This document shows positions 6,103 to 19,418 of a stretch of 25,037 nucleotides of DNA, piece after piece. Every line of letters starts with the position of its first letter. Position 1 is the first letter of the stretch. The DNA comes from a virus (Duplodnaviria > Heunggongvirae > Uroviricota > Caudoviricetes): positions 1-25,037 of IMG/VR virus record IMGVR_UViG_3300045988_138129; one strand, written 5' to 3'. A program made the position numbers and the translations under genes. The notes below the pieces were generated by a model, which saw only the letters and a list, made by a program, of their open reading frames with translations, made no database searches and was not told where the DNA came from.

Positions 6103-6532
6103 TGCCGTCACGGTGCTGAAAACTAACCCCGATATGCTGCGGATATTCGTGGATAACGGGAGTATTGCCTCCACACTGGCGACGTCGCTGTCGTTCGAAA
6201 AGCGTTACACGCTCAATGTCATTGTGACCGGCTTTACCGGTGATTTTGACCTGCTCATCGTGCCGGTGCTGGCGTGGCTGCGGGAAAATCAGCCCGACAT
6301 CATGACCACCGACGAAGGCCAGAAAAAGGGCTTCACGTTTTATGCAGACATCAACAATGACAGCAGCTTTGATATCAGCATCAGCCTGATGCTGACCGAG
6401 CGCACGCTGGTCAGTGAGGTGGACGGCGCGCTGCATGTGAAGAATATCCCGGAACCTCCGCCGCCGGAGCCGGTCACCCGCCCGATGGAGCTTTATATCA
6501 ATGGCGAACTGGTGAGTAAGTGGGATGAATGA
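6065..6532 (+). CDS. R: Tail completion protein gpR
   Basis: 155 aa, MLKPDSLRRALTDAVTVLKTNPDMLRIFVDNGSIASTLATSLSFEKRYTLNVIVTGFTGDFD...; P2 gpR. Confidence 0.92.
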   Translation: MLKPDSLRRALTDAVTVLKTNPDMLRIFVDNGSIASTLATSLSFEKRYTLNVIVTGFTGDFDLLIVPVLAWLRENQPDIMTTDEGQKKGFTFYADINNDSSFDISISLMLTERTLVSEVDGALHVKNIPEPPPPEPVTRPMELYINGELVSKWDE

Positions 6533-6977
6533 GTTTAAGCGTTTTGAAGACAGGCTGACCGGACTGATTGAGTCGCTGTCACCGTCAGGGCGTCGGCGAC
6601 TGAGCGCCGAACTGGCGAAACGTCTGCGTCAGAGTCAGCAGCGTCGGGTGATGGCACAGAAAGCCCCGGACGGCACACCCTACGCACCACGCCAGCAGCA
6701 GAGCGCCAGAAAAAAGACCGGTCGCGTTAAGCGAAAAATGTTTGCGAAACTTATCACCAGTCGTTTTTTGCATATCCGCGCCAGCCCTGAACAGGCATCA
6801 ATGGAGTTTTACGGCGGGAAGTCACCGAAAATAGCCAGTGTGCATCAGTTCGGTCTGTCGGAAGAAACCCGGAAAGACGGTAAGAAAATTGAATATCCGG
6901 CGCGTCCTCTGCTCGGCTTTACCGGTGAGGATGTGCAGATGATTGAAGAGATTATCCTGGCTCACCTGAATCGTTAG
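6525..6977 (+). CDS. S: Tail completion / virion morphogenesis protein gpS
   Basis: 150 aa, MNEFKRFEDRLTGLIESLSPSGRRRLSAELAKRLRQSQQRRV...; P2 gpS; start overlaps the R stop. Confidence 0.92.
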   Translation: MNEFKRFEDRLTGLIESLSPSGRRRLSAELAKRLRQSQQRRVMAQKAPDGTPYAPRQQQSARKKTGRVKRKMFAKLITSRFLHIRASPEQASMEFYGGKSPKIASVHQFGLSEETRKDGKKIEYPARPLLGFTGEDVQMIEEIILAHLNR

Positions 6978-7052
6978 CTTTAATCATCTGAGAATATAAG
7001 ATAGAAATCAATTGATTAGCATAATTTATTTTGAATTTTCATGTTAATAAAT

Positions 7053-7075
7053 AAAAGGCCAGTTATTGGCCTTTT
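7053..7075. terminator. Bidirectional hairpin terminator between convergent S and the S-V cargo gene
   Basis: aaaaGGCCAgttatTGGCCtttt: GC stem flanked by A-run and T-run, so it can serve both strands. Sits between the S stop (6977) and the stop of the minus-strand cargo gene (7080). Confidence 0.7.
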
Positions 7076-7079
7076 ATCA

Positions 7080-8153
7080 TTACTTTCCATTTTTTAATGA
7101 ATTGATTAACGATGCTATTTGCTCAATGCCATCAAATGTAGATGGTATCTTATCATCGGATAGCATGATGTTTGAAAATACTACGTCTTCGAATTTTGAA
7201 AGCGCTTCCGGATTGTTTTTCCTTATCTCTGAGGAATAGTCGCTATAACTCTGAATGAACTGACAAAGGCTCTTTCTGAGTTCTATTTGCATAATCTGAG
7301 TTCGTAACGATATATGATTTAGCAGTACAACTCTAAAGTAATACATGAAAATCAATGTAACTGATGCAAAAGGTAGTGCTGACATAAAATATGTGGCAGC
7401 ATTTGTCGTTTCGAGAGCTGGTAATTTATGCATTCCATAGTATATCAGCGGGGAGGGAATGATTATAGCCAAGATGATAAGAGTTATTCTTGATAGCATG
7501 ATTTCACTTTCTTTCTTTTTGCCAAGTGAATTAAAGCCTTCAAACAATCCAACAAAATTAAATGCGACCTCATACCCTTTTAATGACTCTTTGATTGACT
7601 CTATTTTGGCATGTTGCTCCTTTAAGAAGGAGTCGCACTTTTCGAAAAATTGACGCCCTTCGTTTAAACTATCAATGTATTTTTTATATGTGTCAACATT
7701 GCTGGAGCTTAAAACTTCTTTAACCATTGCTAATGGCAGTTCTCTAAGAGAAAAGTCTATCTGTGCTCTGCTCCGCTCATCGAATTCATTATAGTTATAC
7801 AGAGCAAAATCCTTGATGGTTCTTAGTGGTGAAAAGTGAGACTCTATTTCCGGAGAGAGAATGCTTGGTTCAATGATAAATCTAAAAAAGCAAGTGAATA
7901 TAAGGTTGATGCTGTTGTTATCTTCTCCCTTTTCTCTTAAGAAACTTTTAAAGGTGTCGCCAATCATAGCAATGTTGTACTGGGATTTTTTGTCCCAATC
8001 TTCAGGGTTTTCGGAAATGAAGTTTATTGCTTGAGCAATTATTTTGTTTCTGCTTGATTCAAAGTTTGTGCCGGGAGTCAGCGTGTTCAAAAAGACCAGA
8101 TAATCTTTGAACAATTCTTTCATTGTTTCTGACGAGAAAAAGTAAGTACTCAT
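7080..8153 (-). CDS. Hypothetical two-TM membrane protein in the S-V accessory position; candidate abortive-infection or defense protein
   Basis: Uninterrupted minus-strand ORF, AT-rich by eye. Soluble N-terminal ~240 aa, two hydrophobic helices (LSRITLIILAIIIPSPLIYYG; AATYFMSALPFASVTLIFMYYFRVVLL), C-terminal ~85 aa tail. ATG at 8153 (MSTYFF...) gives 358 aa and avoids overlapping V; alternative starts are GTG at 8249 (389 aa, overlaps V) and ATG at 8123. Confidence 0.75.
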   Translation of the reverse strand: MSTYFFSSETMKELFKDYLVFLNTLTPGTNFESSRNKIIAQAINFISENPEDWDKKSQYNIAMIGDTFKSFLREKGEDNNSINLIFTCFFRFIIEPSILSPEIESHFSPLRTIKDFALYNYNEFDERSRAQIDFSLRELPLAMVKEVLSSSNVDTYKKYIDSLNEGRQFFEKCDSFLKEQHAKIESIKESLKGYEVAFNFVGLFEGFNSLGKKKESEIMLSRITLIILAIIIPSPLIYYGMHKLPALETTNAATYFMSALPFASVTLIFMYYFRVVLLNHISLRTQIMQIELRKSLCQFIQSYSDYSSEIRKNNPEALSKFEDVVFSNIMLSDDKIPSTFDGIEQIASLINSLKNGK

Positions 8154-8239
8154 AATGGATTTTGTTGTCCCTTGTTGTTCTGTGCACCAGAAATCGTGGT
8201 GTGATTTACTTCGAGATTGTACAGAATCATTATTATCGA
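8154..8239. promoter_or_regulatory. Divergent intergenic region, expected site of the V late promoter and of the cargo-gene promoter
   Basis: 86-bp gap between the cargo-gene start (8153, minus) and the V start (8240, plus), containing TTGTTGT...TTGTTCTGT elements. Called from position only. Confidence 0.3.
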
Positions 8240-8869
8240 ATGAATGCACAATACAATGAAATTCTTCGCTTTATACGCAATATGATTCGCACTGGCATTA
8301 TCGTCGAAACCGACCTTAATGCCGGTCGCTGCCGTGTGCAGACCGGCGGCATGTGCACCGACTGGCTTCAGTGGCTGACCCATCGCGCCGGTCGTTCGCG
8401 CACATGGTGGGCACCTTCCGTGGGGGAACAGGTGCTGATTCTGGCCGTGGGCGGTGAACTCGACACGGCGTTCGTTCTGCCGGGGATTTATTCCGGCGAT
8501 AACCCCGCGCCGTCGGCGTCGGCGGATGCCCTGCATATCCGTTTCCCTGACGGGGCGGTGATTGAGTATGAACCTGAAACCAGTGCACTCACGGTAAGCG
8601 GAATTAAAACGGCCAGCGTGACGGCTTCTGATTCTGTTACTGCCACGGTGCCGGTGGTCATGGTGAAAGCATCAACCCGCGTCACCCTGGACACACCGGA
8701 GGTGGTCTGCACCAACAAGCTGATTACCGGCACGCTGGAAGTGCAGAAGGGCGGGACGATGCGCGGCAACATTGAACACACCGGCGGTGAACTTTCATCA
8801 AACGGGAAGGTACTGCATACCCATAAACACCCCGGCGACAGCGGCGGCACAACCGGGAGTCCTCTATGA
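8240..8869 (+). CDS. V: Baseplate spike / assembly protein gpV
   Basis: MNAQYNEILRFIRNMIRTGIIVETDLNAGRCRVQTGGMCTDWLQWLTHRAGRSRTWWAPSVGEQ... matches P2 gpV. The ORF-track start at 8162 is an upstream extension. Confidence 0.93.
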   Translation: MNAQYNEILRFIRNMIRTGIIVETDLNAGRCRVQTGGMCTDWLQWLTHRAGRSRTWWAPSVGEQVLILAVGGELDTAFVLPGIYSGDNPAPSASADALHIRFPDGAVIEYEPETSALTVSGIKTASVTASDSVTATVPVVMVKASTRVTLDTPEVVCTNKLITGTLEVQKGGTMRGNIEHTGGELSSNGKVLHTHKHPGDSGGTTGSPL

Positions 8870-10659: not shown

Positions 10660-12750
10660 ATGAGCACAAAATTCAAAACCGTTATCACCACTGCCGGTGC
10701 AGCAAAGCTGGCAGCGGCAACCGCACCGGGAGGGCGGAAGGTCAACATTACCACGATGGCCGTCGGGGATGGCGGTGGTAAATTGCCTGTCCCGGATGCC
10801 GGACAGACCGGGCTTATCCATGAAGTCTGGCGACATGCGCTGAACAAAATCAGCCAGGACAAACGAAACAGTAATTATATTATCGCAGAGCTGGTTATTC
10901 CGCCGGAGGTGGGCGGTTTCTGGATGCGTGAACTTGGCCTGTACGATGATGCGGGAACGCTAATTGCCGTGGCGAACATGGCCGAAAGTTATAAGCCAGC
11001 CCTTGCCGAAGGCTCAGGGCGTTCGCAGACCTGCCGCATGGTCATCATCGTCAGCAGTGTGGCCTCAGTGGAGCTGACCATTGACACCACAACGGTGATG
11101 GCAACGCAGGATTACGTTGATGACAAAATTGCAGAACATGAACAGTCACGACGTCACCCTGACGCCTCGCTGACCGCAAAAGGTTTTACTCAGTTAAGCA
11201 GTGCGACCAACAGCACGTCTGAAACACTGGCTGCAACTCCGAAAGCGGTTAAGGCCGCATATGACCTTGCTAACGGGAAATATACCGCACAGGACGCTAC
11301 CACCGCGCGAAAAGGCCTTGTTCAGCTCAGTAGTGCGACTAACAGCACGTCTGAAACGCTCGCCGCAACGCCGAAAGCGGTAAAGGCAGCATATGACCTT
11401 GCTAACGGGAAATACACTGCACAGGATGCCACAACAGCGCGAAAAGGCCTTGTTCAGCTCAGTAGCGCCACCAACAGCGATTCTGAAACGCTTGCGGCAA
11501 CGCCAAAGGCGGTTAAGACAGCATATGACCTTGCTAACGGGAAATACACTGCACAGGATGCCACCACGGCGCGAAAAGGTCTTGTCCAGCTCAGTAGCGC
11601 CACCAACAGTGATTCTGAAACGCAGGCTGCAACGCCAAAGGCGGTGAAGTCTGCCTATGACAATGCTGAAAAACGTCTTCAGAAAGATCAGAACGGTGCG
11701 GATATTCCGGGAAAGGATACCTTCACGAAAAATATCGGTGCCTGTCGTGCTTATAGCGGCGCTTTGAGCACTGAAGCCGGAAACTGGACAACCGCTCAGT
11801 TTATTGAATGGCTGGATTCCCGTGGTGCATTTAATCATCCGTACTGGATGTGCAAAGGCTCCTGGTCATATGCAAATAACAAAATCATTACGGATACTGG
11901 CTGTGGCAATATTCATCTTGCTGGCGCTGTTATTGAGGTAATGGGCATAAAGTCTGCAATGACTATTCGTATTACCACACCAACAACATCAAGCGGTGGG
12001 GGCACTACAAGCGCGCAATTTACTTATATTAACCACGGGGACAACTATGCTCCTGGCTGGCGGCGTGACTGGAACCGTTACGGCGATTCTATGTCTGGAA
12101 CTATTAATCAGGATAGTGGAAGCCAGAATGCCTATATGTCTACGGCCTTATGTTCCGGCACCAGAGGCGGCAAAAAATATCTCAGAAAGTTTCGTGGTGG
12201 AGAAGGAGACACTATCTGGCATGAAACAGTACAGGGCGGGGTAATTCGCTGGGCGACAGGTAATACTGATGCTCAGGAAGAATTATCACTCAGCTCTGCT
12301 TATGGTCTTCGTTCAAGAGGTGAAATTACATCGCTCAGTGCTAATGGTCTGCGCATTGCTTATGGCAATTATGGATTCTTTATCAGGAATGATGGCGGCA
12401 GCACATATTTAATGCTGACGGCCTCTGGCGATAAATTTGGAACATGGAACGGTTTAAGACCGCTGACTATCAATAACGCCAATGGCGGAGTGTCAATGGG
12501 GCATGGCCTGAGTGTTACTGGACGTGTTAACCCATCAGATTACGGAAATTTTGATTCCCGCTATGTGAAAGATGTTCGCCTGGGTACGCGTGTTGTTCAG
12601 ACCATGCAAAAAGGCGTGATGTATGAGAAATCAGGCCATGTAATTACAGGGCTTGGCATTGTCGGCGAAGTTGATGGCGATGATCCGGCAGTATTCAGAC
12701 CAATACAAAAATACATTAATGGCACATGGTATAACGTCGCACAGGTGTAA
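10660..12750 (+). CDS. H: Tail fiber protein gpH, with an internal tandem-repeat shaft segment
   Basis: 696 aa; N-terminus MSTKFKTVITTAGAAKLAAATAPGGRKVNITTMAVGDGGG... is the conserved P2-type fiber anchor. The C-terminal third is AT-richer and likely the host-range-determining region. Confidence 0.92.
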   Translation: MSTKFKTVITTAGAAKLAAATAPGGRKVNITTMAVGDGGGKLPVPDAGQTGLIHEVWRHALNKISQDKRNSNYIIAELVIPPEVGGFWMRELGLYDDAGTLIAVANMAESYKPALAEGSGRSQTCRMVIIVSSVASVELTIDTTTVMATQDYVDDKIAEHEQSRRHPDASLTAKGFTQLSSATNSTSETLAATPKAVKAAYDLANGKYTAQDATTARKGLVQLSSATNSTSETLAATPKAVKAAYDLANGKYTAQDATTARKGLVQLSSATNSDSETLAATPKAVKTAYDLANGKYTAQDATTARKGLVQLSSATNSDSETQAATPKAVKSAYDNAEKRLQKDQNGADIPGKDTFTKNIGACRAYSGALSTEAGNWTTAQFIEWLDSRGAFNHPYWMCKGSWSYANNKIITDTGCGNIHLAGAVIEVMGIKSAMTIRITTPTTSSGGGTTSAQFTYINHGDNYAPGWRRDWNRYGDSMSGTINQDSGSQNAYMSTALCSGTRGGKKYLRKFRGGEGDTIWHETVQGGVIRWATGNTDAQEELSLSSAYGLRSRGEITSLSANGLRIAYGNYGFFIRNDGGSTYLMLTASGDKFGTWNGLRPLTINNANGGVSMGHGLSVTGRVNPSDYGNFDSRYVKDVRLGTRVVQTMQKGVMYEKSGHVITGLGIVGEVDGDDPAVFRPIQKYINGTWYNVAQV
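11185..11658 (+). repeat. In-frame tandem repeat inside H, ~3.6 copies of a 132-bp (44-aa) unit
   Basis: Unit boundaries at 11185, 11317, 11449 and 11581. Encoded unit (F/L)(T/V)QLSSATNS(T/D)SETLAATPKAVKAAYDLANGKYTAQDATTARKG. Minus-strand ORF 11194..11838 and short plus ORFs here are repeat-generated shadows. Confidence 0.9.
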
Positions 12751-12753
12751 TTT

Positions 12754-13281
12754 ATGCAGCATTTAAAAAATATTACTGCGGGTAATCCCAAAACTGTTGC
12801 CCAATATCAACTGACAAAAAATTTTGATGTTATCTGGTTATGGTCTGAAGACGGAAAAAACTGGTATGAGGAAGTAAGTAATTTTCAGGAAGACACGATA
12901 AAGATTGTTTACGACGAGAATAATATAATTGTCGGCATCACCAGAGATGCTTCAACGCTTAACCCTGAAGGTTTTAGCGTTGTCGAGGTTCCTGATATTA
13001 CCGCCAACCGACGTGCTGATGACTCAGGTAAATGGATGTTTAAGGATGGTGCCGTGATTAAGCGGATTTATACGGCAGACGAACAGCAGCAACTGGCAGA
13101 ATCACAAAAGGCAACTTTACTTTCCGAAGCTGAATCCGTGATTTTGCCGCTGGAGCGCGCTGTCAGGCTGAATATGGCAACAGATGAGGAGCGCAGCCGA
13201 CTGGAAGCATGGGAACGCTACAGCGTTCTGGTCAGTCGTGTGGATCCTGCAAATCCTGAATGGCCGGAAATGCCGCAATAA
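12754..13281 (+). CDS. G: Tail fiber assembly chaperone gpG
   Basis: 175 aa, [41 protein letters not shown]...; Tfa-type fiber assembly protein immediately after H. Confidence 0.9.
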
Positions 13282-13326
13282 GTTGTATGAGCTGACATAC
13301 CTATAGCACAGAGTAAAGTCTAATCT

Positions 13327-13355
13327 GACAGTCCGCTCTGTGCCAAGAGCAGACG
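13327..13355. repeat. Near-palindromic site A (GACAGTCCGCT-ctgtgccaag-AGCAGAC), left boundary of the transporter cassette
   Basis: 7-bp arms GTCCGCT / AGCAGAC with one central mismatch, 10-nt core. Related to sites B (17003) and C (18008). Lies in the 315-bp gap between G and the BetT-like gene. Confidence 0.6.
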
Positions 13356-13596: not shown

Positions 13597-15600
13597 ATGA
13601 TTATGAGTGAAAATGATACAACCCCAAAGAAGTCTACAAGCCAGGTTAACAAAGCGGTATTCTTTACATCTGCTTTGCTAATTTTCCTTCTTGTCGCCTT
13701 TGCCGCCGTATTCCCGGATGTCGCCGACAAAAATTTTAAACTACTTCAGCAACAAATCTTCACGAATGCCAGCTGGTTCTACATACTTGCTGTGGCCCTG
13801 ATTTTACTGAGCGTCACGTTCCTTGGACTCTCACGTTACGGTGATATAAAGCTGGGCCCAGACCATGCGCAGCCTGATTTCAGCTACCACTCCTGGTTCG
13901 CGATGCTTTTTTCGGCAGGGATGGGGATCGGCCTGATGTTCTTTGGCGTTGCCGAACCTGTGATGCATTATCTTTCGCCACCTGTCGGCACTCCAGAGAC
14001 CGTTGCGGCAGCGAAGGAAGCCATGCGCCTGACGTTCTTCCACTGGGGTCTGCACGCATGGGCAATTTATGCCATCGTGGCGCTGATTCTGGCCTTTTTC
14101 AGTTACCGTCACGGTCTGCCTTTAACGCTGCGTTCTGCGCTCTATCCCATTATCGGCGATCGCATTTACGGGCCTATAGGCCACGCGGTTGATATCTTCG
14201 CCGTGATAGGCACTGTCTTTGGCGTTGCAACATCGCTGGGTTACGGTGTATTGCAGGTGAATGCCGGTTTGAACCATCTTTTCGGCGTGCCCATCAATGA
14301 AACGGTACAGGTCATTTTGATCGTGGTCATCACGGGGTTAGCGACGATTTCGGTGGTGTCCGGCCTGGACAAGGGAATACGCATCCTGTCTGAGCTTAAT
14401 CTGGGCCTGGCGGTGTTGCTCCTGGCGCTGGTCTTGTGCCTGGGTCCCACTGTGCTTCTGCTGAAGTCATTTGTGGAAAATACGGGTGGTTATCTGTCGG
14501 AACTGGTGAGTAAAACGTTCAACCTTTACGCGTATGAACCCAAGTCGAGCAACTGGCTGGGGGGCTGGACATTATTATACTGGGGATGGTGGCTTTCATG
14601 GTCGCCGTTTGTAGGTATGTTCATTGCACGCGTTTCCCGCGGCAGGACAATTCGTGAGTTCGTGACTGGCGTGTTGTTTGTTCCCGCCGGCTTTACGCTC
14701 ATGTGGATGACGGTGTTTGGAAACAGCGCCATCTATCTCATCATGAACCAGGGCGCCACTGACCTCGCCAATACCGTTCAGCAGGATGTTGCGCTTGCCC
14801 TGTTTAATTTCCTGGAGCATTTCCCGTTCTCTTCCGTGCTGTCATTCATTGCAATGGCGATGGTCATCGTCTTCTTTGTAACGTCTGCTGATTCGGGGGC
14901 AATGGTTGTGGATACTCTGGCATCAGGTGGGGTGGCAAACACGCCCGTCTGGCAGCGAATTTTCTGGGCATTGCTCATGGGCGTTGTTGCTATTGCCCTG
15001 CTGATCGCAGGGGGGCTGAGTGCGTTGCAAACCGTAACGATAGCGAGTGCATTGCCCTTCTCAGTTATCTTATTAATATCCATATACGGACTGTTAAAAG
15101 CCCTGCGTCGGGATTTGACCAAGCGTGAAAGCCTTAGCATGGCGACTATTGCTCCTACGGCTGCACGTAACCCAATTCCTTGGCAGAGAAGGTTACGCAA
15201 TATCGCGTATTTGCCGAAGCGCTCTCTTGTGAAACGTTTTATGGACGACATTATCCAACCCGCCATGACGCTGGTTCAGGAGGAACTTAACAAGCAGGGA
15301 ACGATAAGCCACATCAGTGACGCCGCCGAGGATCGTATTCGCCTTGAAGTCGATTTGGGCAACGAGCTGAATTATATATATGAAGTGAGGCTTCGCGGGT
15401 ATAACTCACCGACCTTCGCGCTCGCTGCGCTGGATAATGATGAGCAGCAGAGTGAACAACATCGATATTATCGCGCTGAAGTCTATCTCAAAGAGGGCGG
15501 CCAAAATTATGATGTAATGGGCTGGAATCAGGAACAGCTGATTAATGACATACTGGACCAGTACGAAAAACACCTGCACTTCCTGCATCTGGTTCGTTAA
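13597..15600 (+). CDS. BCCT-family transporter, BetT-like (choline/betaine-type), full length with long C-terminal cytoplasmic domain
   Basis: 667 aa, ~12 hydrophobic helices. BCCT signature GWTLLYWGWWLSWSPFVGMFIARVSRGRTIREF. Conserved blocks resembling BetT at both ends (YGDIKLGP...AMLFSAGMGIGLMFFGVAEPV; QEQLINDILDQYEKHLHFLHL). Alternative start ATG at 13603. Confidence 0.85.
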   Translation: MIMSENDTTPKKSTSQVNKAVFFTSALLIFLLVAFAAVFPDVADKNFKLLQQQIFTNASWFYILAVALILLSVTFLGLSRYGDIKLGPDHAQPDFSYHSWFAMLFSAGMGIGLMFFGVAEPVMHYLSPPVGTPETVAAAKEAMRLTFFHWGLHAWAIYAIVALILAFFSYRHGLPLTLRSALYPIIGDRIYGPIGHAVDIFAVIGTVFGVATSLGYGVLQVNAGLNHLFGVPINETVQVILIVVITGLATISVVSGLDKGIRILSELNLGLAVLLLALVLCLGPTVLLLKSFVENTGGYLSELVSKTFNLYAYEPKSSNWLGGWTLLYWGWWLSWSPFVGMFIARVSRGRTIREFVTGVLFVPAGFTLMWMTVFGNSAIYLIMNQGATDLANTVQQDVALALFNFLEHFPFSSVLSFIAMAMVIVFFVTSADSGAMVVDTLASGGVANTPVWQRIFWALLMGVVAIALLIAGGLSALQTVTIASALPFSVILLISIYGLLKALRRDLTKRESLSMATIAPTAARNPIPWQRRLRNIAYLPKRSLVKRFMDDIIQPAMTLVQEELNKQGTISHISDAAEDRIRLEVDLGNELNYIYEVRLRGYNSPTFALAALDNDEQQSEQHRYYRAEVYLKEGGQNYDVMGWNQEQLINDILDQYEKHLHFLHLVR

Positions 15601-15607
15601 CAGCAAC

Positions 15608-15636
15608 ATGCCGCCACAGAGGCGGCATTTATTTAT
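15608..15636 (+). terminator. Rho-independent terminator after the BetT-like gene
   Basis: ATGCCGCC-acag-GGCGGCAT hairpin followed by TTATTTAT, 8 nt after the stop at 15600. Confidence 0.75.
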
Positions 15637-15663
15637 CCCGGCTGCAATATGAGGGAATGCAGA

Positions 15664-16941
15664 ATGATTTCACGCTGGAAATGGATGCTGAAGCAGACAT
15701 TTAAAAAACTATGGTTCAGGGCAACGTTATTCGCAATTGTCGCAATAATAACGGCCCTTTTATCAATTCTTTTTAAATCAATGATACCTGAGTCGGTTTC
15801 CGTGAAGGTTGGTGCGGAAGCAGTCGATAACATTCTGAACATACTGGCATCGAGTATGCTGGCAGTGACCACATTTTCGCTGAGCATCATGGTCACAGCC
15901 TACGGTTCAGCCACTACTAATGTGACTCCCAGAGCTACTCGTTTAGTTGTTGAAGACGTCACCACACAAAATGTACTGGCCACCTTCATCGGTTCTTTTC
16001 TCTTCAGTCTGGTAGGGATTATTGCCCTCAATATGGGAGCTTATGGAGAAAGGGGGAGAGTCATTTTATTCATTGTAACACTGGTTGTCATTGCCTTAAT
16101 CCTCATCACATTGCTTCGCTGGATACAGCATTTGACCTCTCTGGGGAGGGTTGGTGAGACAACGGCAAAAGTAGAACAGGCGGCCATCGAAACATTTATT
16201 GCGAGAGCAAGAAATCCCTGTCTCGGCGGATATCCATGGCTTGAGAACAATGAACAGCCGAAAGGAACGGTTGCAGTTTATCCGAAAAAGATTGGCTATG
16301 TTGAATATGTTGATATGGTGAAACTCAGCAAGCTGCTGACCAATGATCCCCGTCATGTATACCTCGTGGCGCAGCCGGGCAGTTTCATACATCCGTCCAC
16401 GCCAGTTTTGTACCTGAGTCAGGGCCAGGAGTCATCAATCAGCACCGATTTACTTGAGACGATTATTGTCTCGGATGTACGTTCATTTGCTCAGGACCCC
16501 CGATTTTGTCTTAGCGTCATGGCCGAAATAGCCTGCCGAGCCCTTTCCCCCGCAGTGAACGATCCTGGAACCGCCATTGATGTCATTGGCAGAGGTGTAC
16601 GTATACTTTCCGCTTACGCGCAGAATAAATCTGATGAAATAGAAGTGAAATATCCTTCTGTACATGTTGCACCACTTCAGAATAACGATCTACTTGAAGA
16701 CTTTTTCTCACCTGTTGCGCGCGATGGTGCCAGTATGAGGGAAATTCAGATAAGGGTCCTTAAAGGACTGTCGATGCTGAGTAAGGGTTGGCCTGGAATT
16801 TTTGCTGAAGCCGCACAAACCCTAGCATTTGAAACATTAGAGCATGCTACTCGTGCTGACCATATAGATTCTGACAGATATCTAATAAAATCAATTTATT
16901 ATAATTTATTTAGTGGCGAAGATTCTAATAAAAAACCATAG
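15664..16941 (+). CDS. Membrane protein with four N-terminal TM helices and a large cytoplasmic domain; DUF2254-like (family assignment from memory, uncertain)
   Basis: GAGGG RBS before the ATG at 15664 (MISRWKWMLKQ...); the ORF-track start at 15649 is less likely. Four hydrophobic helices in the first ~160 aa. Conserved-looking block SFAQDPRFCLSVMAEIACRALSPAVNDPGTAIDVIGRG. Confidence 0.75.
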   Translation: MISRWKWMLKQTFKKLWFRATLFAIVAIITALLSILFKSMIPESVSVKVGAEAVDNILNILASSMLAVTTFSLSIMVTAYGSATTNVTPRATRLVVEDVTTQNVLATFIGSFLFSLVGIIALNMGAYGERGRVILFIVTLVVIALILITLLRWIQHLTSLGRVGETTAKVEQAAIETFIARARNPCLGGYPWLENNEQPKGTVAVYPKKIGYVEYVDMVKLSKLLTNDPRHVYLVAQPGSFIHPSTPVLYLSQGQESSISTDLLETIIVSDVRSFAQDPRFCLSVMAEIACRALSPAVNDPGTAIDVIGRGVRILSAYAQNKSDEIEVKYPSVHVAPLQNNDLLEDFFSPVARDGASMREIQIRVLKGLSMLSKGWPGIFAEAAQTLAFETLEHATRADHIDSDRYLIKSIYYNLFSGEDSNKKP

Positions 16942-17002: not shown

Positions 17003-17027
17003 CGTCTGCTTTGTGCCAACAGCGGAC
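17003..17027. repeat. Near-palindromic site B (GTCTGCT-ttgtgccaac-AGCGGAC), between the convergent DUF2254-like and HNH genes
   Basis: Core 8/10 identical to site A in direct orientation. Its arms are the reciprocal variants of site A's arms (A: GTCCGCT/AGCAGAC; B: GTCTGCT/AGCGGAC). Confidence 0.6.
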
Positions 17028-17081: not shown

Positions 17082-17891
17082 TCACTTAATTATTGGATAA
17101 CTCACACAAGTATGACCGTTGCTTATCGCATACATTTGGTTTCCCTTAAGATTTACAAATGGAAATGTCGTATACTCATAATTTATAGAGGTCATATTAA
17201 ATGTAAGGAATTTATCTTCAAGTTCTAATTTTGTAGAGTGGGCAGGGTATGTTCCTTCATTTCTCATTGTGATAATAAAACCGATAGGAAAAAAATGTAA
17301 AGCACAAATAAATGCCACATGTCCTTCGTTCATAAATGCTACACTTTGAGCGGATATGTGCATTCTGTGTGGGTAAAACCAGTAGTAAATATCATGAGTT
17401 TCCTCAAAACTTGAATTTTTACCCAAAACATAATCCTTTAAAGGTGTATAGAAGGGGCTATCTACGGGTTCTTTTTTACAATCTTCAACTGAAGTTGCTG
17501 ATAGCACGTGCCCAATCATAGCCTTAGTGAAAGATATGCTATCAAAAGGTATTCTAATGAATGGATATACATTCATACCATTCATATATCGACTTAACTG
17601 TTCTTTAAAGGACTTTGTTACATTTTCAATTGCAACATCGAGCCCACCTAATACCTTATTGTTACAGTGGCTGCAAATGGTTCTGAAATAAGAGCCATTT
17701 TTAGCATTTAATGGTTTAACTGGTTCCTGAATACCAAAAAATTCGCTAACTGTTTTCTGCAAAACAGGGCCTAAGGTTATGGCGCACTTTGGAGGAACAT
17801 GATCTTTTGTGAGCAAGCCATATTTCCCACAAATATTGCAATAACCTTCAGTAATGCCATTGTGCTTCCATCGTTCACTAATTTTCGTCAT
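17082..17891 (-). CDS. HNH endonuclease-domain protein (N-terminal HNH motif, C-terminal domain of unknown function)
   Basis: 269 aa, AT-rich, GAGGGA RBS before the ATG at 17891. Motif C-N-I-C-G-x9-D-H-V-P-P-K ... N-x12-C-S-H-C-N-N-K fits the CxxC...(D/H)H..P...N...CxxC(N)xK HNH zinc-finger nuclease pattern. Confidence 0.78.
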   Translation of the reverse strand: MTKISERWKHNGITEGYCNICGKYGLLTKDHVPPKCAITLGPVLQKTVSEFFGIQEPVKPLNAKNGSYFRTICSHCNNKVLGGLDVAIENVTKSFKEQLSRYMNGMNVYPFIRIPFDSISFTKAMIGHVLSATSVEDCKKEPVDSPFYTPLKDYVLGKNSSFEETHDIYYWFYPHRMHISAQSVAFMNEGHVAFICALHFFPIGFIITMRNEGTYPAHSTKLELEDKFLTFNMTSINYEYTTFPFVNLKGNQMYAISNGHTCVSYPIIK

Positions 17892-18007: not shown

Positions 18008-18039
18008 GACAGTCTGCTTTTCGCTCAAAGCAGACTGTC
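18008..18039. repeat. Perfect palindrome site C (GACAGTCTGCTTT-tcgctc-AAAGCAGACTGTC) upstream of the HNH gene
   Basis: 13-bp perfect inverted arms around a 6-nt centre. The arms share the GACAGTC(T/C)GCT...AGCAGAC sequence with sites A and B. No T-run follows, so it is not a classic terminator; it could be a recombination site or operator. Confidence 0.65.
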
Positions 18040-18103
18040 AGATTTGATAGCGTTTTGGCTATGTAAATTGTCAGTCGGAAAATGAGTGAGTACAAACTAG
18101 GAC

Positions 18104-18227: not shown

Positions 18228-19418
18228 ATGAGTGACTATCATCACGGCGTGCAGGTGCTGGAGATTAACGACGGCACCCGCGTCATTTCAACCGTATCCA
18301 CCGCCATTGTCGGCATGGTCTGCACGGCCAGCGATGCGGATGCGGAAACCTTCCCCCTCAATAAACCGGTGCTGATTACCAATGTGCAGAGCGCAATTGC
18401 AAAGGCCGGTAAAAAAGGCACGCTGGCGGCATCGTTGCAGGCCATCGCTGACCAGTCAAAACCGGTCACCGTTGTTGTGCGCGTGGAAGACGGCACCGGC
18501 GACGACGAAGAAACGAAACTCGCGCAGACCGTTTCCAATATCATCGGCACCACCGACGAAAACGGTCAGTACACCGGACTGAAAGCCCTGCTGGCGGCGG
18601 AGTCGGTAACCGGTGTTAAACCGCGTATTCTCGGCGTACCGGGACTGGATACCAAAGAGGTGGCTGTTGCACTGGCATCAGTCTGTCAGAAGTTGCGCGC
18701 TTTCGGGTATATCAGCGCATGGGGCTGTAAAACCATTTCCGAGGTGAAAGCTTACCGCCAGAATTTCAGCCAGCGTGAGCTGATGGTCATCTGGCCGGAT
18801 TTCCTCGCATGGGATACGGTCACCAGTACCACCGCCACCGCGTATGCTACCGCCCGTGCGCTGGGTCTGCGTGCCAAAATCGACCAGGAGCAGGGCTGGC
18901 ATAAAACGCTGTCCAACGTCGGGGTGAACGGTGTTACCGGCATCAGCGCATCTGTATTCTGGGATTTGCAGGAGTCCGGCACCGATGCTGACCTGCTTAA
19001 CGAGTCAGGCGTCACAACACTGATTCGCCGTGACGGTTTCCGCTTCTGGGGTAACCGTACCTGCTCTGATGACCCGCTGTTCCTCTTTGAAAACTACACC
19101 CGCACCGCACAGGTACTGGCCGACACGATGGCTGAGGCGCACATGTGGGCGGTGGACAAGCCCATCACCGCAACGCTGATTCGTGACATCGTTGACGGCA
19201 TCAATGCCAAATTCCGTGAGCTGAAAACAAACGGCTATATCGTGGATGCGACCTGCTGGTTTAGCGAAGAATCCAACGATGCGGAAACCCTCAAGGCCGG
19301 AAAACTGTATATCGACTACGACTATACCCCGGTGCCTCCTCTTGAAAACCTGACCCTGCGCCAGCGTATCACCGATAAATACCTGGCAAATCTGGTCACC
19401 TCGGTTAACAGCAATTAA
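18228..19418 (+). CDS. FI: Tail sheath protein gpFI
   Basis: 396 aa, MSDYHHGVQVLEINDGTRVISTVSTAIVGMVCTASDADAETFPLNKPVLITNVQ...; contractile tail sheath of P2 type. Confidence 0.95.
   Translation: MSDYHHGVQVLEINDGTRVISTVSTAIVGMVCTASDADAETFPLNKPVLITNVQSAIAKAGKKGTLAASLQAIADQSKPVTVVVRVEDGTGDDEETKLAQTVSNIIGTTDENGQYTGLKALLAAESVTGVKPRILGVPGLDTKEVAVALASVCQKLRAFGYISAWGCKTISEVKAYRQNFSQRELMVIWPDFLAWDTVTSTTATAYATARALGLRAKIDQEQGWHKTLSNVGVNGVTGISASVFWDLQESGTDADLLNESGVTTLIRRDGFRFWGNRTCSDDPLFLFENYTRTAQVLADTMAEAHMWAVDKPITATLIRDIVDGINAKFRELKTNGYIVDATCWFSEESNDAETLKAGKLYIDYDYTPVPPLENLTLRQRITDKYLANLVTSVNSN

Follow-up and report, generated by a model that had tools for sequence, protein, structure and literature searches.

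Membrane proteins of the DUF2254 family (PF10011; InterPro IPR018723, 'predicted membrane protein') are numerous, with ~9,100 clusters at 50% identity (9129 clusters at E<=1e-3) that share a uniform single-domain layout of ~410-440 aa, and the family has no solved structure and almost no literature. A search of the literature for DUF2254, PF10011, IPR018723, COG4325, the RefSeq accessions and phage-borne BCCT transporters returned no functional study, in agreement with an earlier interpretation made from the letters of this DNA (hereafter the sequence-only reading), which had described the domain as lacking a known function. The only published remark on the family concerns AlphaFold models that contain a 3_1 knot or slipknot (PMC11184937). 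A pipeline prediction of 2012 had labelled DUF2254 a 'guanosine phosphorylase', which is not credible because the protein has four transmembrane (TM) helices and no phosphorylase fold. The second system of relevance is the Z/fun (G-FI) locus of P2-like phages, a described hot spot of anti-phage genes (PMC9122126, PMC13586616).

The window analyzed here (the whole stretch of 25,037 nucleotides) is a P2-like E. coli prophage; it shows 100% identity with parts of several E. coli chromosomes, and its tail genes resemble those of P2, WPhi and L-413C at 90-94%. The series H-G-cargo-FI begins with the tail fibre gene H (10660-12750), followed by the tail-fibre assembly gene G (12754-13281), which lies directly before the cargo, and the sheath gene FI starts after the cargo at position 18228. 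The cargo spans ~4.9 kb and contains three genes, coding for a BCCT transporter, a DUF2254 protein and a CxxC-rich protein of 269 aa (17082-17891, minus strand; function not assigned). Both its location between G and FI and the conserved boundary sequences on its two sides place it among the cargoes of the P2 Z/fun hot spot. The left boundary of the cassette is a 24-nt imperfect palindrome, GTCCGCTCTGTGCCAAGAGCAGAC, at 13331-13354, which has no strand and is part of a longer inverted repeat pairing 13319-13354 with 18012-18047. A second copy (17004-17027) forms the right boundary of the cassette and a third (18012-18035) the right edge of the entire G-FI cargo region. When the pattern GTCYGCT-N10-AGCRGAC was searched with one mismatch allowed, these three copies (starting at 13331, 17004 and 18012) were found in the window versus 0.03 expected by chance. 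Phage P2 itself has the left palindrome site on the left side of its Z/fun cargo, and boundary palindromes are common to P2, P2_4C9 and pro147. The boundary sequences of the hot spot are reportedly a subject that Nilsson et al. 2004 (Mol Biol Evol 21:1) probably covers. The palindromes at 13331 and 17004 enclose exactly the BCCT and DUF2254 genes, which are 63 nt apart on the plus strand, just as the sequence-only reading had it when it noted that the DUF2254 gene follows the transporter on the same strand within one bracketed segment. The gene of the 269-aa protein is outside this module, in a neighboring cassette, and is missing in most other copies of the module.

The DUF2254 coding sequence (15664-16941, plus strand) is a real gene of 425 codons plus stop, as supported by the open reading frame, Pfam and identical proteins in RefSeq. 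Its frame is open from 15649 to 16941 and has an in-frame ATG at 15664, which is the start used in RefSeq for identical proteins (1278 nt) and is preceded at a distance of 9 nt by a Shine-Dalgarno-like GAGG (15651-15654, plus strand). The family assignment proposed earlier holds over the full profile: PF10011 was matched with 310.6 bits (cut-off 28.8, E=1.6e-92) at profile positions 3-366 of 368, and PHROG 27913 also matched the protein (E=5.9e-275). No NCBIfam model matched it, and sub-threshold Pfam hits to Wzy_C (best E=1.6e-4, 21.9 bits, cut-off 31.7), FTR1 and holin (E<=10) were dismissed as noise from TM composition. With its four N-terminal TM helices, conserved C-terminal domain and single-domain length within ~410-440 aa, the protein has the features that define the DUF2254 family, and it is under purifying selection (dN/dS 0.10-0.13 in seven comparisons).

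The four TM helices predicted by the sequence-only reading were recovered as four hydrophobic segments that coincide with long helices in the AlphaFold2 model (residues 2-40, 48-86, 99-124 and 131-159). On the basis of hydrophobicity, alignment and AlphaFold2, they form a membrane core of residues ~15-158 (15706-16137, plus strand), which is followed by a domain of residues 162-425 (16147-16938, plus strand) that AlphaFold2 builds as a small alpha/beta subdomain and then alpha-helical repeats. The N-terminus is strongly basic, being rich in K and R, and loop 1 is acidic, so that by the positive-inside rule an N-in, C-in topology is likely, and the C-terminal ~265 residues would therefore be cytoplasmic. 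In the model of the whole protein (based on a 36-sequence alignment) the mean pLDDT was 79.8, with ~60-70 in the TM part and >90 in the predicted cytoplasmic part; when the latter was modeled alone, pLDDT reached 91.3 and pTM 0.86. A sequence-profile search of the PDB with the DUF2254 protein gave no match, and Foldseek against the PDB gave a best E-value of 0.31 with no enzyme, channel, transporter or sensor fold recognizable. The best PDB fold matches of the cytoplasmic domain were generic helical repeats, including designed ones.

Conservation was examined with particular regard to the cytoplasmic block QDPRF...EIACRALSPAVNDPGTAI (16492-16578, plus strand; delimited by alignment), which the sequence-only reading had quoted as conserved. 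This is indeed the case: the block, QDPRFCLSVMAEIACRALSPAVNDPGTAI at 16492-16578, is nearly invariant among homologs of 49-91% identity, with 19 invariant columns in 36 of them. The most conserved parts of the protein are, however, TM2 (residues 57-81, SSMLAVTTFSL) and TM3 (residues 102-124, TTQNVLATFxGSFLFSLVG), which rank above the cytoplasmic block: the mean majority fraction was 0.91 in TM2 and 0.92 in TM3 versus 0.71 in the helical cytoplasmic region and 0.50 in the alpha/beta subdomain.

The upstream gene (13597-15600, plus strand) encodes a BetT-type BCCT transporter of 667 aa (Pfam BCCT, E=3.3e-199), which scored 751.8 bits against the NCBIfam model 'choline BCCT transporter BetT' (cut-off 695) and is itself under purifying selection (dN/dS ~0.03, seven comparisons). 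It ends 63 nt before the DUF2254 ATG. Both genes are on the plus strand, and this arrangement would suit an operon, yet the gap contains a conserved hairpin with a T-rich tail. In the window it is a terminator-like, GC-rich hairpin with an 8-bp stem, followed by TTATTTAT (15608-15628, plus strand; -17.7 kcal/mol, z=-2.85). All seven other enterobacterial pairs examined have a hairpin with a T-rich run at this place; their stem sequences differ, and the T-rich run is weak in one of them (L108). The genes are not translationally coupled, and because the terminator-like hairpin between them is conserved, their co-transcription would be at best partial. In comparison with the E. coli island copy, dS was 0.33 for the BCCT gene and 0.09 for DUF2254, a difference that points to recombination inside the module and to separate histories of its two genes. 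Regulation of the BetI type was considered and rejected, as DUF2254 in the E. coli island is followed by a TetR gene that belongs to the TetR_C_13 type and not to the BetI type; a BetI-type regulator was found nearby only in Pantoea eucrina.

The BCCT+DUF2254 module is widespread in enterobacteria. Among 5426 complete E. coli genomes, BCCT was found in 1959 and DUF2254 in 1945, the module being present in ~36%, and 1531 plasmids carry it, of which 1266 are from Klebsiella and which are mostly IncF. The palindrome-bracketed form occurs at 99.8-100% identity in a Rac-like lambdoid prophage, an IncFII plasmid and viral contigs. DUF2254 was detected in 25 viral contigs, and all these loci are at least 84% identical and represent one enterobacterial cassette only; the palindrome flanks the pair on one side or both in 20 of the 25, and 23 contain the BCCT gene, while in the other two the available DNA ends before the BCCT site. 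The cassettes downstream of the pair vary between copies. A diverged form of the pair (90-97% nucleotide identity) lacks the palindromes and has IS elements as flanks. One copy is located in a chromosomal island of E. coli near IS3, IS1, virK and lpxM, and another on a Klebsiella IncFIB/IncFII plasmid, where it lies ~4 kb from the sil copper/silver-resistance cluster (one plasmid inspected). Homology to the plasmid begins ~130 nt before BCCT and ends 12 nt beyond the DUF2254 stop. Pluralibacter and Lelliottia have plain chromosomal BCCT-DUF2254 pairs with different flanks, and most of the copies in E. coli and Klebsiella reside outside phages, in islands or plasmids with IS flanks. IS elements, plasmids and the cargo hot spots of phages have spread the pair, and its recurrence as a unit in islands, IncF plasmids and lambdoid and P2-like prophages bears out the earlier suggestion that the two genes were acquired together.

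Their joint presence is less complete when full-length genes are counted. At a coverage of at least 80%, BCCT was retained in 1932 E. coli genomes versus 1361 for DUF2254, and in ~570 genomes a full-length BCCT gene stands beside a DUF2254 gene truncated at nucleotide 341. Inspection of two of these, E. coli B and APEC O1:K1:H7, showed that IS911 makes the cut at nucleotide 341 and that the 665-aa BCCT reading frame is intact.

The sequence-only reading had also proposed a survey of BetT-like and DUF2254-like gene pairs in other genomes. We surveyed 80 species-level GTDB loci sharing 47-92% identity with the query; they stem from Alpha-, Beta- and Gammaproteobacteria and, in one case, a planctomycete. 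Among at least 595 matching loci these are the nearest 80, in a family with thousands of more distant clusters. Neighbors were grouped by unbiased clustering of open reading frames and their families confirmed with Pfam. BCCT-DUF2254 pairs do co-occur elsewhere, in both orders. A BCCT gene was located within 10 kb of DUF2254 at 14 loci and at none of the remaining 66, and at 7 loci it directly adjoined DUF2254 on the same strand. BCCT came first in Serratia, a proteobacterial MAG, Pluralibacter and two Agrobacterium, and DUF2254 came first in Pantoea eucrina and an Aurantimonadaceae MAG. All adjoining BCCTs are long and BetT-like (>670 bits to the BCCT of the window). Since these cases fall into at least four separate clades of the DUF2254 protein tree and show both gene orders, the pairing is recurrent and not the accident of one lineage. 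Close relatives in Mangrovibacter and Pantoea ananatis are solitary among housekeeping genes.

The survey further revealed an enrichment of other ion and osmolyte transporters next to DUF2254. Within 700 bp we found BCCT at 7 loci, NhaA at 10, ClC at 6, MscS at 3, CPA exchangers at 3 and MgtE at 2, altogether 23 of the 80 loci; the signal is partial, as 57 loci have no such transporter as an immediate neighbor. The six families first tested gave 23.5 hits per 100 kb beside DUF2254 versus 1.5-2.0 farther out at the same loci (~13-fold), where it should be noted that the families were picked post hoc after viewing the neighbor clusters, with the distance-decay comparison as a partial control, and that the hits are phylogenetically clustered. 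NhaA was near DUF2254 at 11 loci (10 within 600 bp) and ClC at 7 (6 within 600 bp), most of these cases being supplied by a Pseudomonas clade in which NhaA, DUF2254 and ClC stand together. MscS-like channels were near DUF2254 at 7 loci, two of them overlapping its start by 4 bp, whereas TrkH and CDF occurred only 1-9 kb away. Some loci resemble osmotic or ionic islands: besides the Pseudomonas group just named, one has MscS-DUF2254-BCCT ahead of a CPA exchanger and a K+ channel (L025), one has MscS-DUF2254-NhaA, where a 4-bp overlap occurs (L074), and one has a K+ channel followed by BCCT and DUF2254 (L059). MgtE-DUF2254 was found at L112.

Several explanations may be offered for these data. 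The sequence-only reading had regarded DUF2254 as a possible partner of the transporter, and its strictest form would be a dedicated accessory or regulatory subunit that binds BetT in the membrane and modulates choline uptake or its osmotic activation. The near-perfect co-occurrence in E. coli (1945 versus 1959 genomes) speaks for such a subunit, as do the preservation of the pair over at least two different mobilization routes and its adjacency, which arose independently at least four times in Proteobacteria, in both orders and in every case with a long BetT-like BCCT. However, neither of the patterns expected of an obligate partner, that is, co-occurrence with BCCT across the family and loss of BCCT where intact DUF2254 is missing, was seen: 66 of 80 loci had no BCCT within 10 kb, other loci pair DUF2254 with NhaA, ClC, MscS, CPA or MgtE, solitary copies exist, and ~570 E. 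coli genomes keep a full-length BCCT gene beside a truncated DUF2254. The conserved hairpin, the lack of translational coupling and the dS values, which show that the gene histories were parted by recombination, count against it as well. The characterized BCCT transporters (BetP, BetT, CaiT and OpuD) are not known to require accessory subunits, which also weighs against it. We therefore disfavor a BetT subunit and consider it improbable; what stands of the partnership is the tight module and the recurrent pairing, but not dependence of one gene on the other, given the loci without BCCT, the truncated alleles and the hairpin. At the opposite extreme, DUF2254 might be a hitch-hiker that owes its linkage to BCCT only to their common origin in a single ancestral locus of enterobacteria and has a role unrelated to osmolytes or ions. 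All mobile copies do go back to one enterobacterial clade, a gap of ~60 nt would seldom be parted by recombination, and most family members have unrelated neighbors. Mere linkage nevertheless leaves unexplained the independent juxtapositions with BCCT in Pantoea eucrina, Agrobacterium and Aurantimonadaceae as well as the 13-fold local enrichment of ion/osmolyte transporters, and purifying selection persists on the mobile copies, so that we find this explanation unlikely.

Two further possibilities concern the protein itself. The sequence-only reading had seen in the cytoplasmic block a hint of an enzymatic or sensing role, and DUF2254 could accordingly be a membrane-anchored enzyme or ligand sensor, for example for a choline-containing compound, with the invariant cytoplasmic residues as its site (R273, QDPRF, E288, R292, ND299-300, R310, R313, D346, RD353-354, E360 and K367). 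These charged and polar positions are invariant and the domain is folded with confidence in the model; on the other hand, no enzyme fold or family rose above noise, the top fold matches being designed helical repeats, and the matches to phosphorylases, which span ~96 helical residues, are no better than dozens of generic ones. The membrane helices, moreover, exceed the cytoplasmic block in conservation. The enzymatic part of the earlier suggestion thus received no backing from fold or profile searches, and the structure prediction that had been proposed as a check gave an alpha/beta subdomain with helical repeats in which no enzyme fold is recognizable; we view an enzyme or ligand sensor as quite improbable. 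The position of the gene in P2 Z/fun would be in keeping with a prophage defence or superinfection-exclusion membrane protein, since this locus is a hot spot of anti-phage genes in P2-like phages and the DUF2254 product is a membrane protein. However, no defence model of PADLOC-DB v2 matched DUF2254, BCCT or the 269-aa neighbor at E<=0.1, viral DUF2254 is limited to one enterobacterial cassette and accompanied by BCCT wherever the flank is available, the family is found overwhelmingly on chromosomes in the company of housekeeping or transport genes, and most E. coli and Klebsiella copies lie outside phages, in IS-flanked islands and plasmids. The absence of a PADLOC match and the single-cassette viral distribution led us to reject defence as the main reading, and we regard it as highly improbable.

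The explanation that we prefer, and that we consider plausible though short of probable, is that DUF2254 acts as an autonomous inner-membrane protein of ion or osmotic homeostasis. In such a scheme, the BetT-type transporter and DUF2254 would have been captured as a single cassette in the Z/fun (G-FI) hot spot. The polar, near-invariant core of TM2 and TM3 would be the working part, either a path for conduction or transport or an intramembrane sensing site, and the cytoplasmic domain would be a module for gating or regulation, which may also act in sensing. DUF2254 activity would complement osmolyte uptake by BetT without being that of a transporter subunit. The osmotic or ionic role is inferred, as would be any channel-like or sensor-like mechanism. 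A more specific and rather doubtful version is that the family represents a class of ion or solute channel or osmosensor not recognized before, in which TM2 and TM3 would be gated by the (possibly knotted) cytoplasmic domain, and which would have been recruited repeatedly beside BetT, MscS, NhaA, ClC, CPA and MgtE; in the enterobacterial module it would tune BetT-dependent osmoprotection, for instance through charge compensation or by serving as a release valve. About one in three complete E. coli genomes contains the module, as do over 1,200 Klebsiella plasmids, and it also moves through the cargo hot spots of phages; should DUF2254 take part in osmotic or ionic adaptation, it would be a widespread mobile fitness determinant in clinical Enterobacteriaceae and would constitute a new class of membrane protein. 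The IS911-truncated alleles offer natural controls, and the neighborhood data point to particular stresses.

Comparison with known systems helps to delimit what is new. MscS-type channels, bestrophin-like channels and CorA share with DUF2254 a layout of few TM helices with conserved polar residues and a large cytoplasmic domain, but none has sequence or fold similarity to it, CorA appearing only at Foldseek E>1. Membership in these classes was tested and did not hold, and the likeness to osmoregulatory channels is one of layout and context only. Within PF10011/IPR018723, the protein of the window matches thousands of members in length and architecture, and nothing sets it apart; gene and family are already catalogued, and RefSeq labels identical proteins 'DUF2254 domain-containing protein'. 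The new element is solely a contextual hypothesis, built on the linkage to a mobile BetT-type BCCT and on the ion/osmolyte transporters that adjoin DUF2254 across the family. As regards the accessory cargo ('morons') of P2-like phages, the site between G and FI is identical, and the palindromic sequences at the borders of the window's cargo are those that enclose the Z/fun cargo of phage P2. The hot-spot literature on P2-like phages stresses anti-phage cargo, whereas the window carries a transporter and a membrane protein without a defence signature. Finally, the BCCT+DUF2254 cassette is also carried by lambdoid prophages and an IncFII plasmid.

Segments of variable cargo at the P2 Z/fun hot spot, which lies between tail-fibre assembly gene G and sheath gene FI, were found to be bounded by a 24-nt palindrome, GTCYGCT-N10-AGCRGAC, which is able to form a hairpin with the loop GTGCCA at left-hand sites and TCGCTC at right-hand sites. 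In the window, palindrome sites were located at positions 13319-13354, 17004-17027 and 18012-18047. Successive cassettes in lambdoid prophages and in an IncFII plasmid were likewise separated by this palindrome, and further sites could be identified in loci L001, L002, L083-L107 and L119-L198, while no copy was present in the 1.5 Mb of chromosomal control loci searched. The GTGCCA-type palindrome occurred in more than 120 viral contigs among the matches listed; the BetT-type transporter (BCCT) gene was found in only 5 of the 80 viral contigs analyzed from these at least 120 listed.

Several other palindrome-bounded cassettes could be characterized. Those adjoining the BCCT-DUF2254 module in lambdoid prophages (L087, 11341-14407; L083, 11341-13794) carried either a LysR regulator, a ChaC-like protein and an MFS transporter, or proteins of 225 and 319 amino acids that had no Pfam match. 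Another cassette, detected in a Rac-like prophage (L001, 12228-14401) and in the IncFII plasmid (L002, 12748-15353), encoded a 476-aa protein that matched no Pfam family and a 200-aa tyrosine recombinase whose match to Pfam Phage_integrase covered the catalytic domain only. This recombinase is a candidate for the enzyme acting on the palindromic sites; the mechanism of such cassette exchanges has been described as unclear (PMC13586616). The recombinase cassette preceded a gene for a 269-aa protein with CxxC pairs in the Rac-like prophage but followed it in the plasmid, as if the cassettes had been shuffled. In the window, this 269-aa gene (17082-17891, minus strand) belongs to PHROG 21495, a family of unknown function, and its product had no match in Pfam, NCBIfam or PADLOC. 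In phage pro147 it is the sole cargo at the Z/fun hot spot and is annotated as a 'putative metal-binding domain-containing protein'. It is possible that it represents an uncharacterized defence gene.

A second low-GC stretch was also observed at approximately 6500-8500 of the window (GC 0.34-0.43, compared with approximately 0.55-0.60 in the flanks), which suggests a further segment of foreign cargo within the prophage.

When window positions 13597-16941 were compared with loci L115 and L116, synonymous divergence (dS) was 0.33-0.37 for BCCT and 0.09-0.14 for DUF2254, an approximately 3-4-fold difference within the same pairwise comparisons, implying that a recombination breakpoint lies either within one of the genes or in the gap separating them. 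In both genomes inspected, Escherichia coli B (L117, 6001-6341) and APEC O1:K1:H7 (L118), IS911 cuts DUF2254 at nucleotide 341 beside the fec locus, and the adjoining BCCT ORF is intact (665 aa). The same pattern of partial DUF2254 and full-length BCCT was found in approximately 570 complete E. coli genomes. These truncated copies are natural knock-outs that could be useful in function tests. In a few database proteins (P0049, P0078 and P0097), a DUF2254 fragment was fused to TrkH, Peripla_BP_3 or usher domains; such proteins probably reflect truncated copies affected by deletion or by mis-called genes, as opposed to true domain fusions.

In phage P2 itself (L239) the palindrome likewise bounds the variable cargo, with sites at 594 and 2192 of that locus, and L241 has it at 582 and 2048. 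The palindrome, which reportedly may already have been described by Nilsson et al. in 2004, looks like a cassette-exchange site common to unrelated mobile elements.
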